A stretch of 46,819 nt of DNA from Promethearchaeota archaeon (GCA_018238625.1 JABCSY010000021.1:1-46819); one strand, 5' to 3'. Counted from the first letter of the stretch, positions 29,884 to 35,386 are shown. Notes: generated by a model from the letters alone, not told the origin. Program-made: numbers and translations.

Positions 29884-32730
29884 TTAAGATTTAAATAAAT
29901 AATTAGGATCTTTTTTAATTTTCAATCTTATTCTATATTTCCTTAGTTCGTCGACGATGGAAACACTAAATGCGGCAATAAAGAGAGTTGCCCAGTGATA
30001 CCATTGTGTTAAAGGCACGACGTGAAAAGCGATAGCCATTGGCGTGTAAAGTATTAAAAGTTGTAAACCGAGAGAAAGTCCTGTAGCCCAAAATAAGTGC
30101 TTATTAGGGAAGTGCCAAAACGGTTTTGTATTACTAGTACATGTATAGACAAAAAGTAATTCACATATCACTAAATTCGTAAATAGAATTGTCTGCGCTA
30201 AACCTATGGCATATGTTTGGGATGCCCCTGGACTTAAATAACCAGCCAAATTTGGATCTATAAGGCTCCACTCAGGAATAAGAACGGTCCAAAGAACTAT
30301 GTAAAGAGTGATATCGGTAATTGAAGTATATATTCCTAATAGCAAAGCGGGACCTCTTATTTCTTTTAATAACGTAAATCCTTTTCTCGGGGGGCCCTTC
30401 ATGACATCGGGATCTGTTGGAGTTAGCCCTAAAACCATCGCTGGAATGCCATCTGTCGCTATATTTAGCCAAAGTATTTGAATTGGTTCGATCGGAGCTC
30501 CTATAAAGACATTAACAAATAGTTTCATGACAATATACGCAACCAAAATCAGAAATATTTCGTCAAAATTCGTCGAAAGCATATAGCGGAAGAAATTTGT
30601 GGTTGTTTCAAAGATTCCTCTACCTTCTTCGATTGCGTTTACAATAGTTGCGTAATTATCGTCGATAAGTATCATATCTGAAGCTTCTTGAGTGACCTCA
30701 GTACCTTTTAAACCCATTGCTACGCCCACGTGAGCGCCTTTTACAGCTGGAGCATCGTTAACCCCATCACCCGTCATGGCAACCACTAAATCGAGTTCCT
30801 TAAGTCGCTTCAAAATTCTTAGTTTATGTTCTGAAGTTACTCGTGCGAAAACATCAACGGTTTTAACTTTCTCGCGTAATTCGTCATCATTCATTTCTTC
30901 TAAATCTAACCCTGTAATTGCTTCATTTGACTCAGTTAGACCAATTTGTTGTGCGATTGCTATGGCAGTTACTTTATGGTCTCCCGTGATCATGATCGTT
31001 CGGATACCCGCCATTCTAGCTTCTTTGATGGCGTCTTTAACTTCGTCTCGGGCGGGATCAATAATTCCTACTAAACCTATATAAGTAAAATCCTTCTCTA
31101 CATCATTGAGATCGTATCCCGGTTCTAATTCCTTATATGCTACTCCAAGAACTCTTAAAGCATTTTCAGCAAATTGGTTATTTTGATTTAATATTTTATC
31201 TTTTGCGTTCTCAATTGACTTACTTTCGCCATTTGATAATACATGAGAAGCATTTCTCATCATTATGTCTGGAGCTCCTTTTATTAAAGCAACGATTTTA
31301 CCGTCTAATTTACCAATTACGCTCATCATCTTCCGATCGGAATCGAAAGGAATTTCGTCTAATTTCTCAAAAGATTCGTTGAGTTTCATCTTCAAAGCTA
31401 AGACTTTCATGGAAATTTCAGTAGGATCGCCAACAACACTAACTTCTCCTGTTTTTTGGTCGAGAACATTTACATTGGAATTGTTGCAAAACAAACAAAC
31501 TTCTAAAAACCGCTTAAGATCAGGGTTCATGCTCACAACATTTTCGTTTTCTTTAATATCCCCAATAAGATTATATCCTACACCCTCTACATCGAATACT
31601 TTTCCGTTTAAATACATTTTCACTACTGTCATTTCGTTTTTCGTCAACGTACCAGTTTTATCGCTACAAATGACGCTAACACGTCCTAGAGTTTCCACAG
31701 CGGTTAGCTTCCTGACTAAAGCGTTCCTCCCAGCCATTTTTTTCATACCTATACTTAGAACCACCGTAATAACGACAACGAGACCCTCAGGAACGGCCGA
31801 TACAGCTAAACTTATAGCAATTTTAAACGCATCGATCATATGCTCTATTTCTTCGGGACCGAAACCTAAACCTTCTGTAACTAGTATCATAATTATTTCT
31901 GTGACAAAAACGCCAGCACATATCAATAGGATTGCTATTCCTAATAACTTTCCAAATCGATTTACTTCTACTTGAAATGGACTAGGTTCTTGTACCTCTT
32001 GTTGCAAACTTTCAGCTATTTTTCCTATTTCGGTATTCATCCCCGTCCCAATTGCAATTCCTTCTCCATTTCCTCTCGTGATTATCGTGTTCATGTATCC
32101 TAGGTTAATTCTATCAGCTAGAATCATCTTTTCGTCTACGATATCTAATTGTTTTTTTACAGGAGCAGATTCCCCGGTTAAAATTGCCTCATCGACGTAA
32201 AGCGAAAACTCTTTTATTAACCTTAAATCCGCTGGAAATTTATCCCCGTCTTCAAAAAGGATAATGTCTCCTAGTGCTACGTCTTCTACGGCAATTTCAC
32301 TAACTTTACCATCTCTACGAACCTTTGCAAAATGGGGCGCAAGTTTCTTTAAACTTTCCATCGATCTTTCTGCTTGATATTCCTGATAAAACCCCAAAGC
32401 TGCGTTAGCAATTAAAATTGCGGCAATTACAATAGCATCGGTGTATTCTGAAGACCACGCTTCACCACCTTGAGATGCCTCCCATATTCCAATTATAATT
32501 GAGATGGCAATCGCGAAAAGTAATAAATAAACAAGAAAGCTTTTAAATTGACCTATGAAAATTTGAAGAGCAGTTTTTCCTTTTTCCTTCACTAATTCAT
32601 TTTTTCCATATTTTTCAAGTCTAGCTGCTGCTTCTAACTCAGATAAACCTCTTTCGATTGAAGTGTTCATTGCGTTTACGACTTTTTCAACAATCTCCGA
32701 ATGTGCACTAATTTGTTTTATTTCTACCAT
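29884..32730 (-). CDS. P-type cation-transporting ATPase, type IIA (SERCA-like Ca2+ pump)
   Basis: TGES, VPEGL, CSDKTGTLT, KGAPD, MITGDH, TGDGVNDAPA. TM5 reads STNFDE and TM6 reads ILWLNIATDGIPA. Confidence 0.95.
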   Translation of the reverse strand: MVEIKQISAHSEIVEKVVNAMNTSIERGLSELEAAARLEKYGKNELVKEKGKTALQIFIGQFKSFLVYLLLFAIAISIIIGIWEASQGGEAWSSEYTDAIVIAAILIANAALGFYQEYQAERSMESLKKLAPHFAKVRRDGKVSEIAVEDVALGDIILFEDGDKFPADLRLIKEFSLYVDEAILTGESAPVKKQLDIVDEKMILADRINLGYMNTIITRGNGEGIAIGTGMNTEIGKIAESLQQEVQEPSPFQVEVNRFGKLLGIAILLICAGVFVTEIIMILVTEGLGFGPEEIEHMIDAFKIAISLAVSAVPEGLVVVITVVLSIGMKKMAGRNALVRKLTAVETLGRVSVICSDKTGTLTKNEMTVVKMYLNGKVFDVEGVGYNLIGDIKENENVVSMNPDLKRFLEVCLFCNNSNVNVLDQKTGEVSVVGDPTEISMKVLALKMKLNESFEKLDEIPFDSDRKMMSVIGKLDGKIVALIKGAPDIMMRNASHVLSNGESKSIENAKDKILNQNNQFAENALRVLGVAYKELEPGYDLNDVEKDFTYIGLVGIIDPARDEVKDAIKEARMAGIRTIMITGDHKVTAIAIAQQIGLTESNEAITGLDLEEMNDDELREKVKTVDVFARVTSEHKLRILKRLKELDLVVAMTGDGVNDAPAVKGAHVGVAMGLKGTEVTQEASDMILIDDNYATIVNAIEEGRGIFETTTNFFRYMLSTNFDEIFLILVAYIVMKLFVNVFIGAPIEPIQILWLNIATDGIPAMVLGLTPTDPDVMKGPPRKGFTLLKEIRGPALLLGIYTSITDITLYIVLWTVLIPEWSLIDPNLAGYLSPGASQTYAIGLAQTILFTNLVICELLFVYTCTSNTKPFWHFPNKHLFWATGLSLGLQLLILYTPMAIAFHVVPLTQWYHWATLFIAAFSVSIVDELRKYRIRLKIKKDPNYLFKS

Positions 32731-32912
32731 TTTTTGTTCACTATTTTTCGATTTTTTTAATTAAATTAAATATTTTAGATAATAATGATTTTAAAATTTA
32801 TACATTATACATTAGTAAATACAAGCTAATAAAAAAATTATTGGGGTAAACATTGTTTAAATTATCGTTCTCAAAAACGGCTTTGGAGTATATTTTTGAA
32901 GAACAACAAAAA

Positions 32913-33227
32913 ATGGAATCAGAAAAATTAGTAGTAGTCCTTTTTTATCATTCCGCTGAATCGTGAACAATGTGCTTCTGTGGGAATTTTGTCGAGTTAG
33001 TAGAAAAACACAAACTCCTAGATGACCACGATTTTGTCGAATGGAAGGATATTGACGTTGAAAACGAAGATTTCGAGGACGAGCGTGTGGAGGTTTACGT
33101 CGAAAAAGAAATCATTCCTGAACTAGAAAAAAAACCTTTAATTATAGTGGATGCGGCAATAGGAGAAGTTGAAGGTAAAAAAGTAGGTATGTTGTTCATA
33201 AAAAAAAATTCAAATGTATACGGTTAA
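32913..33227 (+). CDS. Probable thioredoxin/glutaredoxin-fold selenoprotein (UxxC), 104 aa with TGA read as Sec
   Basis: ATG 32913 is in frame with track ORF 32970 and gives MESEKLVVVLFYHSAES-[TGA 32964-32966]-TMCFCGNFVELVEKH...VEWKDIDVE...KKPLIIV...GKKVG. A SECIS-like hairpin follows the stop. Confidence 0.8.
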
Positions 33228-33290
33228 TAGATGAACTTATCTTGGAAATTTTAGAAGATAAAGCGATAAACGGTTGTGCCCGTGCCGTAA
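33219..33290 (+). promoter_or_regulatory. Eukaryote-like SECIS element candidate (3' UTR)
   Basis: AUGA at 33231-33234, helix UUAUCUU/AAGAUAA, apical AAA 11 nt after AUGA, and CGAU on the 3' side. Confidence 0.7.
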
Positions 33291-33395
33291 TTAAAAAAAT
33301 TCCCTTTTTTTATTAAACTTGACAATAAATTTATAAACATCCTTTATCTTTTCATTGTTAATTTACTATATCTAATAAAAAAGATTAAATAAATA

Positions 33396-33962
33396 GTGAT
33401 AAATATGAGGTATTCACGACTTTTTAGATGGATTGTACGCGGCTTCTTGCTTGTTTTCACGCTATCGTTATCAGCAGTGTCTCTTTTAGGTGGTTTCTCT
33501 GCTATGACTATTTTTGATCCTAATGTAAATAATGTTAATGTTCCTGATGGAGATATAACAGCAAATTTTGATATTAGTAATCCAAGTGGAATGTTCATTA
33601 ATGTTCCTTTTAATATCTCAAATTCTGGAGTATATGATTTAACAAAGATTCGATTAGGTTTTCAAATTGCTATGACTTATGGTAATGCATCAACACCATT
33701 GAATGATACGACTACAGTAGTAATCTTTGATAAATCGCAATCTTTTGGAACTATTACTCAAGGGGTCACTCTGAAAGCGAATCTCACTGGTACGGCAGCG
33801 GATTTTGCAAATTTACCAGATCCTAACACAGAAGTAGATTGGTATAGAGCACCTTATGCTTTAGAATTTTATATGAACCTTACATTTAGCGCGTCTTATT
33901 CACTTAATCTATATACTTTTTCAGTTAATATAATTAACTTAACGGCGGGGCATTTTCCATAG
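33396..33962 (+). CDS. Membrane-anchored beta-rich protein (LEA-2/WHy-like pattern)
   Basis: N-terminal TM followed by INVPFNISNSGVYDLTKIRLGFQI, with several NxS/T sequons. The family call is tentative. Confidence 0.6.
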   Translation: MINMRYSRLFRWIVRGFLLVFTLSLSAVSLLGGFSAMTIFDPNVNNVNVPDGDITANFDISNPSGMFINVPFNISNSGVYDLTKIRLGFQIAMTYGNASTPLNDTTTVVIFDKSQSFGTITQGVTLKANLTGTAADFANLPDPNTEVDWYRAPYALEFYMNLTFSASYSLNLYTFSVNIINLTAGHFP

Positions 33963-33974
33963 AGGGTGATATAA

Positions 33975-34490
33975 ATGGGGCGTAATTTTAATATTTTTAA
34001 AGGGTTAATATATCTGAGCGTTTATATAACAACGACGATGGTTATTCCATTTTTCACTTTTACTTTAATGAAGGAAGTCTCGATAATGGGCGTCGACATT
34101 TTACTTGAGCAACCCGATTACGATAGAATAATTTATTGGGTTTCTGCCTTCGGATTGCTTATTAGTGCATGCGCATTTTTTAACTATTCTTCTCCTAAAC
34201 AGTCGATTAGAAAAGGGACTATCTCGTTAATTCAAATACTTTTAAATTGCTTGTATATATGGTCGTATAAGTTTAGCGGAGCTACTGAAGTTCGCTTTGA
34301 AATAATAATTGAATTAGCAAATTTAGGTTTTATAGCCGTAAACGTTCAAAACATGGTTATGCTATATATGGGAGTTTATTTTCTTACAATATTTCTTAAA
34401 GGATATGATTTTTTTGATTTTATCATTAATCGGGAAAAAATTCGAGAGAAGAGATATAAACCACAGTTAGGAGGCATTGATAAAGCGTGA
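33975..34490 (+). CDS. Hypothetical multi-pass membrane protein
   Basis: About 4 hydrophobic segments. GAGGGTGA SD-like site upstream; GTGA overlap with the next gene. Confidence 0.75.
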   Translation: MGRNFNIFKGLIYLSVYITTTMVIPFFTFTLMKEVSIMGVDILLEQPDYDRIIYWVSAFGLLISACAFFNYSSPKQSIRKGTISLIQILLNCLYIWSYKFSGATEVRFEIIIELANLGFIAVNVQNMVMLYMGVYFLTIFLKGYDFFDFIINREKIREKRYKPQLGGIDKA

Positions 34491-35386
34491 TTTTTCAAAC
34501 AATTGATTTAATTCAAACTATTGCGGATATTGTTGCAGCCATTTTAACTTTTTTAAACCCTATAGTATCGCCTATGGGTTCTTTCATGGTTCTTTGGATG
34601 GACTATGTTTTACAATTTTTTCCTCAAAATAACCTAACATTCTATATAATCATATCTGCATTAATTGTTACAACTGGGGCTATTGTTAATATAGCTTGGT
34701 CAGGGGATAAAAAACCAAAGTTTCTTGAAAAAGCTGAAGAACTTAAAGAAGAAGCGGAAAAACTTGAAGAGAAAGCTGAAGAACTTAAAGAAGAAGCGGA
34801 AGAGCTTGAAGAAAAGGTAGCGAAAAAAGCAAAAAAACTTAAAAAAGCAAAAAAACGCGAAGAGAAGGTAGAAAAAGCCGAAGAACTTGAAGAGAAAGCT
34901 GAAGAACTTGAAGAGAAAGCCGAGGAACTTAAAGAAGAAGCGGAAAAACTTGAAGAAAAAGCGGAAGAACTTGAAGAAAAAGTAGAAGAAGCAGAAGAAC
35001 TTAAAGAAGAAGCTGAAAAACTTGAAGAGAAGGCAGAAAAACTTGAAGAAAAAGCAGAGGAACTAAAAGAAAAAGCTGAAGAGCTTGAAGAAAAGGTTGA
35101 AGAACTTGAAGAAGATGTTGAAGAATTAAAAGAAGATGCCGAAGAGCTTGAAGAAGAAGCAGAAGAGCTTGAAGAAGAAGCAGAAGAGCTTGAAGAAGAA
35201 GCGGAAGAACTTGAAGAAGATGTTGAAGAATTAAAAGAAGATGCCGAAGAGCTTGAAGAAGAAGCGGAGGAACTTGAAGAGAAAGCAGAAGAGCTTGAAG
35301 AAAAAGTAGAGGAACTTGAAGAAGATGCAGAAGAACTAAAAGAAGAAGCAGAAGAAAAAAAAACTGATAATCCTAATACAGATTAA
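34487..35386 (+). CDS. Membrane-anchored long acidic coiled-coil protein
   Basis: Hydrophobic N-terminal ~70 aa, then ~210 aa of (K/E/D)AEEL(E/K)E heptads. Confidence 0.8.
   Translation: MIFQTIDLIQTIADIVAAILTFLNPIVSPMGSFMVLWMDYVLQFFPQNNLTFYIIISALIVTTGAIVNIAWSGDKKPKFLEKAEELKEEAEKLEEKAEELKEEAEELEEKVAKKAKKLKKAKKREEKVEKAEELEEKAEELEEKAEELKEEAEKLEEKAEELEEKVEEAEELKEEAEKLEEKAEKLEEKAEELKEKAEELEEKVEELEEDVEELKEDAEELEEEAEELEEEAEELEEEAEELEEDVEELKEDAEELEEEAEELEEKAEELEEKVEELEEDAEELKEEAEEKKTDNPNTD
34725..35355 (+). repeat. Degenerate 21-bp coding tandem repeat (7-aa heptad)
   Basis: Units resemble GAAGAACTTGAAGAAAAAGCA. A ~62-bp block is duplicated at ~35099 and ~35204 (offset 105 = 5 x 21). Confidence 0.9.

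Follow-up and report, generated by a model that had tools for sequence, protein, structure and literature searches.

A short reading frame in a 46,819-nt stretch of DNA from a Promethearchaeota archaeon (GCA_018238625.1 JABCSY010000021.1:1-46819; hereafter, the window) contains an in-frame TGA at positions 32964–32966. This raises the question of whether the codon ends a small gene or is read as selenocysteine (Sec) within a larger one and, in the latter case, what kind of protein carries the residue. A preliminary description proposed a 104-residue selenoprotein of thioredoxin fold with an unusual U-x-x-C-x-C active site. The follow-up analysis supports Sec, lengthens the gene and points to a different fold. 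The best overall explanation, to which a probability of about 0.6 is assigned, is a 124-residue cytosolic selenoprotein that would present Sec38 on a HesB/IscA-like fold and act as a ligand carrier.

The reading frame itself is as originally proposed. The ATG at 32913, the TGA and the ATG at 32970 share one frame that ends at the TAA at 33225–33227, and read-through yields the product ...KLVVVLFYHSAES-U-TMCFCGNF..., including the segments quoted further downstream. The 85-residue ORF at 32970–33227 is the sole piece returned by standard ORF finding, and public records carry it as an 85-aa 'hypothetical protein'; gene callers have thus truncated the gene, as had been suspected. The product is also acidic, with 28 D/E against 15 K/R residues counted on the translation. 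The length of 104 residues from ATG 32913 did not hold, and the gene and its associated elements are now placed as follows, in order of discussion.

32853–33227, plus strand: full coding sequence of the predicted selenoprotein; TTG start, 124 codons, TAA stop at 33225–33227; 375 nt.
32964–32966, plus strand: UGA codon 38, predicted selenocysteine; one alignment column.
32979–32981, plus strand: Cys43 codon TGT, conserved partner of the predicted Sec in a U-x4-C motif.
32827–32847, plus strand: A-rich box TAATAAAAAAATT (32827–32839), then a G-rich, Shine–Dalgarno-like GGGGT (GGTGA in relatives).
33305–33311, plus strand: run of seven T, read from sequence.

The open frame extends upstream from ATG 32913 to the TTG at 32853 (it is open from 32850), and the 20 additional N-terminal residues, FKLSFSKTALEYIFEEQQK, are kept in relatives. 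At 30 loci in related genomes, similarity starts no more than two residues from residue 1 of the extended product, and in most of them the N-terminal extension is aligned from query residue 1. Where database entries for relatives translate TGA as Trp, the protein begins 'MFKISFS...', at exactly the position of TTG 32853. Furthermore, Met21, the product of ATG 32913, is Ile in many relatives, so this ATG is not the start codon there. The upstream open frame and the conserved N-terminus together define a gene at 32853–33227, with 124 residues and Sec at position 38. The codon aligned with position 32853 varies across loci L012–L041 (TTG, ATG, GTG, ATA, GTA, CTG, ATT and TTT), which leaves one to two codons of uncertainty for some relatives; the variation reflects either initiation at non-canonical codons or small shifts in the start.

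In most of 31 upstream stretches, the A-rich box and the GGTGA-like motif recur at equal distance before the conserved start; in relatives, the GGTGA-like motif is found 4–8 nt, and the A-rich box about 20–28 nt, upstream of the start position. From this shared arrangement, 32827–32847 is likely to comprise the promoter and ribosome-binding region. Archaeal terminators are oligo-T runs, and the T-run at 33305–33311 is likely to mark the transcription end of a short monocistronic mRNA. Contigs of RNA run X18 span 32700–32797 only, outside the gene.

A six-frame search of 400 Asgard genomes recovered the gene in 56, the window's own genome included. Exactly one in-frame TGA occurs in all 53 best-per-genome orthologue matches (E ≤ 2.4e-14; identity down to 41%), which is far beyond chance; in three of the 53, the matched region includes a TAA as well. 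The TGA column is identical in 31/31 aligned copies (30 orthologues and one paralogue), where its context is conserved on both sides as [FY][FY]xSxxx-U-[TL]xx[FLY]C, and 11 further copies likewise have TGA at the Sec column. The expectation that Asgard relatives would place TGA at one codon, within protein conserved on both flanks, is therefore borne out. Nucleotide differences among 11 equal-length orthologues fall on codon positions 1:2:3 in the ratio 279:73:467 before the TGA and 780:367:1385 after it, compared with 304:352:342 in a control of the 60 nt before the start. The matching codon periodicity indicates that the same coding constraint acts upstream and downstream of the TGA.

These observations bear directly on the alternative that the TGA is a real stop codon, or results from an assembly error, and that the region holds separate 37-aa and 85-aa ORFs or a pseudogene. 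Standard gene callers do report the 85-aa ORF, and TGA, which closes 198 of 1745 long open frames in the genome, is thus an ordinary stop there and not a reassigned codon. A stop or an error is hard to reconcile, however, with retention of the TGA in every orthologue at such divergence, with equal periodicity on both sides, or with the covarying selenocysteine insertion sequence (SECIS) described below, which is missing from Cys-containing paralogues. Contigs of three independent studies (X4, X5 and X10) also span 32964–32966 with no difference listed, and this concordance again speaks against an assembly error. The probability of a stop or an error is almost negligible.

A second alternative retains read-through but has a near-cognate or suppressor tRNA insert a standard amino acid (Trp or Cys) at the UGA. 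Some public pipelines do give relatives a Trp at this codon, but those records are code-4-style gene calls and not evidence of decoding. Natural homologues that lack Sec have Cys at the column (P0048, P0049, P0058, P0064 and P0071, together with three tandem Cys paralogues identified in DNA), and never a TGG-coded Trp in the copies read at the DNA level. As the genome also holds a full Sec pathway and a SECIS lies 3′ of the gene, decoding as a standard residue is very unlikely. Genuine Sec decoding of UGA 38, judged from these sequence comparisons, is by contrast highly probable.

The predicted SECIS begins 4 nt 3′ of the stop codon and comprises the following parts.

33231–33267, plus strand: SECIS core hairpin, with AUGA at 33231–33234 and GAU at 33265–33267, from an alignment of 30 elements.
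33235–33243 with 33255–33264, plus strand: SECIS helix of 9 bp with one bulged A.
33244–33254, plus strand: SECIS apical loop GGAAAUUUUAG, A-rich.
33270–33283, plus strand: second hairpin, ACGG-UUGUGC-CCGU, immediately following the SECIS core; 4 bp.

The core reads AUGA in 26 of the 30 elements and is non-canonical in the other 4/30 (AUGU in three, AUAA in one); GAU is present in 30/30, and the AAA of the apical loop is conserved. RNAalifold predicts the long helix from the 30 aligned elements, with six of its nine pairs showing compensatory changes, and 94.6% of cells in this helix pair. Of the four pairs in the mini-hairpin, three are changed on both sides, and 87.1% of cells are paired. 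Taking both helices together, 92.3% of cells pair, compared with 40–50% when the 3′ partners are slid, and 9/13 pairs change on both sides; the observed values were reached by none of 500 shuffles. The 3′-UTR SECIS foreseen in the preliminary description is thus found as a covarying AUGA...GA hairpin. Rfam returned no SECIS and no tRNA family, either for the whole window at gathering thresholds or for 33150–33400 at E ≤ 10; a snoRNA match from Rfam was rejected as chance. A covariance model built from the family's SECIS elements and run on the whole genome scored its own element at 75.9 bits and the next at 22. Because it finds itself alone, this model is uninformative on other selenoprotein genes.

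In four orthologues (L018, L036, L040 and L041), a second TGA, lying only a few bases before the SECIS, serves as the end of the frame. Read in this way, one mRNA in each of these four would use UGA both as Sec, at codon ~38, and as a stop. A UGA needs spacing from its SECIS, and a UGA stop directly before the element fits this requirement.

Published descriptions of type I eSECIS-like elements in Asgard archaea (PMC11227280; PMC4989117) give them an AUGA_GA core and an apical loop that contains unpaired adenines. The element found here resembles these 'lokiSECIS' as they are presented in both papers, in its 3′-UTR location, AUGA_GA core, helix and unpaired loop adenines. It differs in its placement 4 nt after the stop, in its covarying 4-bp 3′ mini-hairpin and in a family-specific sequence that goes undetected by Rfam.

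Paralogues provide an internal control for the pairing of codon and RNA element. In G175, G170, G176 and other genomes (loci L087–L092), members of the family stand in tandem, with as many as three paralogues per cluster, of which two types have Sec and one has Cys; one copy of the family was found in the window's own genome. Type A corresponds to the orthologue (U-T-M-A-F-C-G-N), type B carries the motif R-S-U-S-G-x-F-C and type C is the Cys form (Q-A-C-A-G-S-Y). An AUGA...GA hairpin lies 3′ of 11/11 additional Sec copies, one of them with an ACGA core, and nothing SECIS-like is present in the 3′ flank of 3/3 tandem Cys-form paralogues. The presence of the hairpin with Sec copies and not with Cys copies indicates that the RNA element tracks the UGA and not the protein family. 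Cys43 has a similar distribution: it is invariant (30/30) in the orthologue alignment and present in both Sec subfamilies, but not in the Cys-form paralogues.

The genome, which is 97.9% complete with 7.6% contamination, contains all of the Sec machinery for which the preliminary description had called: tRNA-Sec, SelD, a PSTK-like gene, SepSecS and a SelB-like gene. SepSecS scores 479.9 bits, over its cut-off. About 4 kb from it lies the SelB-like gene, at 236.8 bits just under cut-off, and the PSTK-like gene, at 144.9 bits, is under its curated cut-off. Two tandem SelD genes, both over cut-off, are located outside the window (contig C148:29888-32282). Each has one in-frame TGA and, read from sequence, its own 3′ AUGA/UGA hairpin followed by a further hairpin; multi-copy Sec-SelD is already reported for Lokiarchaeia (PMC11227280). 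Of 135 genomes in this Asgard family, 130 have SepSecS, and three gene-bearing genomes with no SepSecS match are 72–85% complete.

ARAGORN and Rfam found no tRNA-Sec in the genome, and three weak Rfam tRNA-Sec matches proved to be tRNA-Arg, tRNA-Gly and tRNA-Leu. A blastn search with the tRNA-Sec of relatives matched 59 identical bases (positions 17–75) just upstream of SepSecS. The gene lies at contig C107:14173-14331 (locus L004:1267-1425, outside the window), has a compensated 9-bp acceptor stem and contains two introns, one in the D-arm region (about 32 nt) and one in the T-loop (about 30 nt). Rfam and ARAGORN missed it because these two introns split the gene. Within the genus, 16 genomes have a tRNA-Sec over the Rfam cut-off, of which the two-intron query matches only the tRNA body, suggesting intron-less genes. 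The 5′-intron part alone is matched in about 4 genomes, the T-loop-intron part alone in about 10 and the whole two-intron form in 5 to 6. The T-loop intron is the only tRNA-Sec intron mentioned in the main text of Mariotti 2016 (PMC4989117).

From these components, a decoding route can be proposed in which UGA 38 would be read as Sec with the aid of the SECIS that begins 4 nt 3′ of the stop codon. This is taken to be a eukaryote-like Asgard element of type I, in which a kink-turn core (AUGA/GA) flanks the 9-bp helix with its A-rich loop, and the mini-hairpin follows on the 3′ side. SelB/EFSec and Sec-tRNA-Sec would act at UGA38, 267 nt upstream of the SECIS core, and the genome's own tRNA-Sec, PSTK, SepSecS, SelD and SelB/EFSec would supply the remaining decoding steps.

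The gene is found in 53 of 134 genomes of the window's own taxonomic family, and two matches outside it are weak (E about 0.003–0.009) and have no TGA. A profile search of 1.84 billion representative proteins returned 59 relatives. Many of these are broken at the Sec column, beginning at profile position 43 or stopping at 40, and the full-length ones either have W at this column, from alternative-code gene calls, or are Cys homologues. The source names in the database place the family in Lokiarchaeota/Promethearchaeota.

The nature of the protein fold is a separate question. The preliminary description assigned a thioredoxin/glutaredoxin fold, with a UxxC-type site after strand β1. Sec38 does follow a hydrophobic strand (LVVVLFYHS) and, in this genome, a Cys occupies the +3 position. 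Two AlphaFold models (pLDDT 78.8 for model 1 and 85.3 for model 2) nevertheless share the order β1-α1-β2-β3-β4-β5-α2-β6-β7, which is not a thioredoxin topology. Both place Sec38 in the turn of the β2–β3 hairpin, with Cys43 on β3, and not at a helix N-terminus. Of the U-x-x-C-x-C motif, U and the last Cys are conserved, but the middle Cys, at +3, occurs in 8 of 31 copies, so that the conserved motif is U-x4-C. The supposed cis-Pro position varies among P, S, T, G, D and E in relatives. The protein has no thioredoxin-type Pfam match at E ≤ 10, and Foldseek searches with both models gave no thioredoxin among the matches listed. This fold is accordingly very improbable. The known Asgard selenoproteins of thioredoxin fold, as they are described (the Prx-like and DsbA-like proteins and the AhpF-N homologue), are also small, have a Sec/Cys pair and occur in the same genomes, but their predicted fold and motif spacing differ from those found here, and neither a sequence match nor, among the matches listed, a structure match links them to this family.

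Several comparisons instead point to the A-type carriers IscA, SufA and HesB (PF01521). With model 1, nine of the top 10 Foldseek matches are of IscA, SufA or HesB type (E 1.9e-3 to 0.25; TM 0.45–0.64), including IscA (1r94, 1s98 and 1x0g), SufA (2d2a), HI1723, AQ_1857 and two 'putative Fe-S biosynthesis' proteins. Model 2, for which 2,000 candidates were aligned compared with 60,000 for model 1, gave no IscA-type match, the best E being 0.94. An hhalign comparison of the diverse family alignment with 24 canonical PF01521 sequences from other Asgard genomes gave an E of 6.9e-4 with a probability of only 26.6%. In this statistically weak alignment (probability 26.6%), the Sec column falls on the Cys of GGC*xG, the first ligand position of IscA/HesB. 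A laxer setting aligned 81 columns in the expected register, from β1 to the IDY-type strand. The hhalign score of 24.96 is higher than that of each of 81 controls: 12.1 for the reversed alignment and maxima of 16.2 for 40 column shuffles and 20.0 for 40 block shuffles. When the narrow alignment A1 was compared with canonical HesB, the result was not significant (probability 1.5%, E 0.034).

The Cys homologue P0048 is the family member closest to PF01521 (E 1.3e-3; 19.4 bits against a cut-off of 26.3), and the three ESM-Atlas clusters nearest to it belong to PF01521, at scores of 0.85–0.88 that are rated leads only. For the protein itself, no Pfam or NCBIfam model reaches threshold; TIGR01911, PF01521 and NF041239 (Moor_selen_rel / CC-Se) have no match in the genome at E ≤ 10, and a profile search of PDB sequences gave 0 matches. 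The C-terminal Cys-x-Cys ligands of A-type carriers are absent, the family ending ...FIKKxSNVYG; canonical Asgard PF01521 sequences end CxCG, with C-x-C ligands in 12 of 24. Taken together, the predicted structures and profiles make a HesB/IscA-like fold reasonably probable. Because the evidence for and against is mixed, the protein is filed, with similar confidence, as one that 'works and looks like' the HesB/IscA type, without being assigned to PF01521 or TIGR01911.

Comparison with two known systems makes this placement more specific. The element order and overall fold of IscA/SufA (PF01521; 1r94, 1s98, 2d2a and 1x0g) agree with model 1, and the profile alignment runs in register from β1 to the IDY-type strand, whereas the family lies under every HMM threshold, is without the C-terminal C-x-C and has Sec instead of Cys. 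The HesB-like selenoprotein of TIGR01911 (M. maripaludis MMJJ_08070 and anaerobic bacteria) is likewise a small single domain with Sec at the first conserved Cys of HesB/IscA; it is described as a distant IscA relative of unknown function, confirmed in M. maripaludis by 75Se labelling (PMC11097638). The TIGR01911 model scores over cut-off in M. jannaschii, in contrast with its lack of a match here at E ≤ 10. The Asgard family further differs in its U-x4-C motif, its lack of a C-terminal Cys, its eukaryote-like and not methanogen-type SECIS, and the confinement of the Sec gene to one Asgard family.

In the favoured explanation, the HesB/IscA (A-type carrier)-like α/β fold would hold Sec38 at the tip of the β2–β3 hairpin, the first-ligand position, with the invariant Cys43 five residues beyond it. 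The two residues would form a ligand site on a flexible hairpin, and the selenolate and Cys43, probably across a homo-oligomer, may bind and pass on an Fe–S cluster or a thiophilic metal. Such a protein would parallel the uncharacterised HesB-like selenoprotein of Methanococcus. Carrier rather than oxidoreductase chemistry is put forward tentatively, as a possibility short of an even chance.

A competing possibility is that the gene encodes a genuine selenoprotein whose likeness to IscA/HesB is spurious or irrelevant, and that it represents a new small fold or family with a U-x4-C selenenylsulfide redox centre, as in an oxidoreductase or a peroxide or disulfide sensor. This possibility is favoured by the finding that Cys43 always accompanies Sec in both Sec subfamilies and is missing from the single-Cys paralogues, the pattern to be expected if a resolving Cys had co-evolved with Sec. 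The lack of an IscA match for model 2 and of any HMM at threshold is also in its favour. On the other side, the Foldseek result for model 1, the hhalign comparison with controls, the subthreshold Pfam score and the ESM Atlas clusters all indicate PF01521, and a U-x4-C on a β-hairpin is not known as a redox motif. A 2026 review (PMC13188914) regards the majority of selenoproteins that are still uncharacterised as likely redox proteins. A redox centre of this kind, while unlikely, retains an appreciable share of the probability.

In a further extension of the preferred carrier reading, Lokiarchaeia may have evolved their own obligately selenium-dependent branch of the A-type carrier fold. This branch would comprise three subfamilies, two with Sec and private SECIS elements and one with Cys, in which U-x4-C replaces the three-Cys site, and would take the place of canonical IscA/HesB. 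None of the 134 genomes of this Asgard family has canonical PF01521, which is present in 17/400 Asgard genomes overall. This extension is speculative and, on balance, improbable; if true, it would describe a selenolate-ligated Fe–S or metal carrier, a chemistry undescribed for any carrier protein. The IscA-like reading, if true, would provide a second, independent instance in which an A-type carrier has Sec as a ligand residue, and would bear on the role of the enigmatic HesB-like selenoproteins.

The main texts of published surveys list five selenoprotein families for Loki (Mariotti 2016, PMC4989117) and seven across more than 400 Asgard genomes (Huang 2024, PMC11227280, which took known families as its starting point); the same seven appear in the 2026 review (PMC13188914), and Sun 2021 (PMC9723677) adds no family. 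No HesB-like or U-x4-C Asgard family appears in the main text of these four papers, the supplementary tables of which might list one, and literature searches found no other report of the family. The suggestion that the family is undescribed thus agrees with the main text of both Asgard selenoproteome surveys (PMC4989117 and PMC11227280). Both surveys, as described there, were homology-driven, and for this reason a family without recognisable relatives would be missed, which suggests that Asgard selenoproteomes are under-counted. The present family would be the eighth Asgard selenoprotein family and the first that is specific to Asgard archaea. With a 375-nt coding sequence and a SECIS 4 nt after the stop, it would also be a naturally compact system in which to test the eukaryote-like SECIS of Asgard archaea.

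The surroundings of the gene are conserved in part. Its divergent upstream neighbour in 26 of 30 loci, from several genera, is a P2A-type ATPase, which in the window is placed as follows.

29884–32730, minus strand: P2A-type (PMR1/SERCA-like) cation P-type ATPase; TIGR01522 605.8 bits and TIGR01116 584.1 bits, both under equivalog cut-offs.

Downstream, on the same strand as the selenoprotein gene, lie two genes for small membrane-like proteins of about 184 and 171 aa, which are conserved in 19 and 18 of the 30 loci, respectively, and gave no family match. They are followed by a gene whose 299-aa product has a hydrophobic N-terminus and then a long, highly repetitive, E/K-rich coiled coil; the three genes together occupy 33396–35386 of the window.
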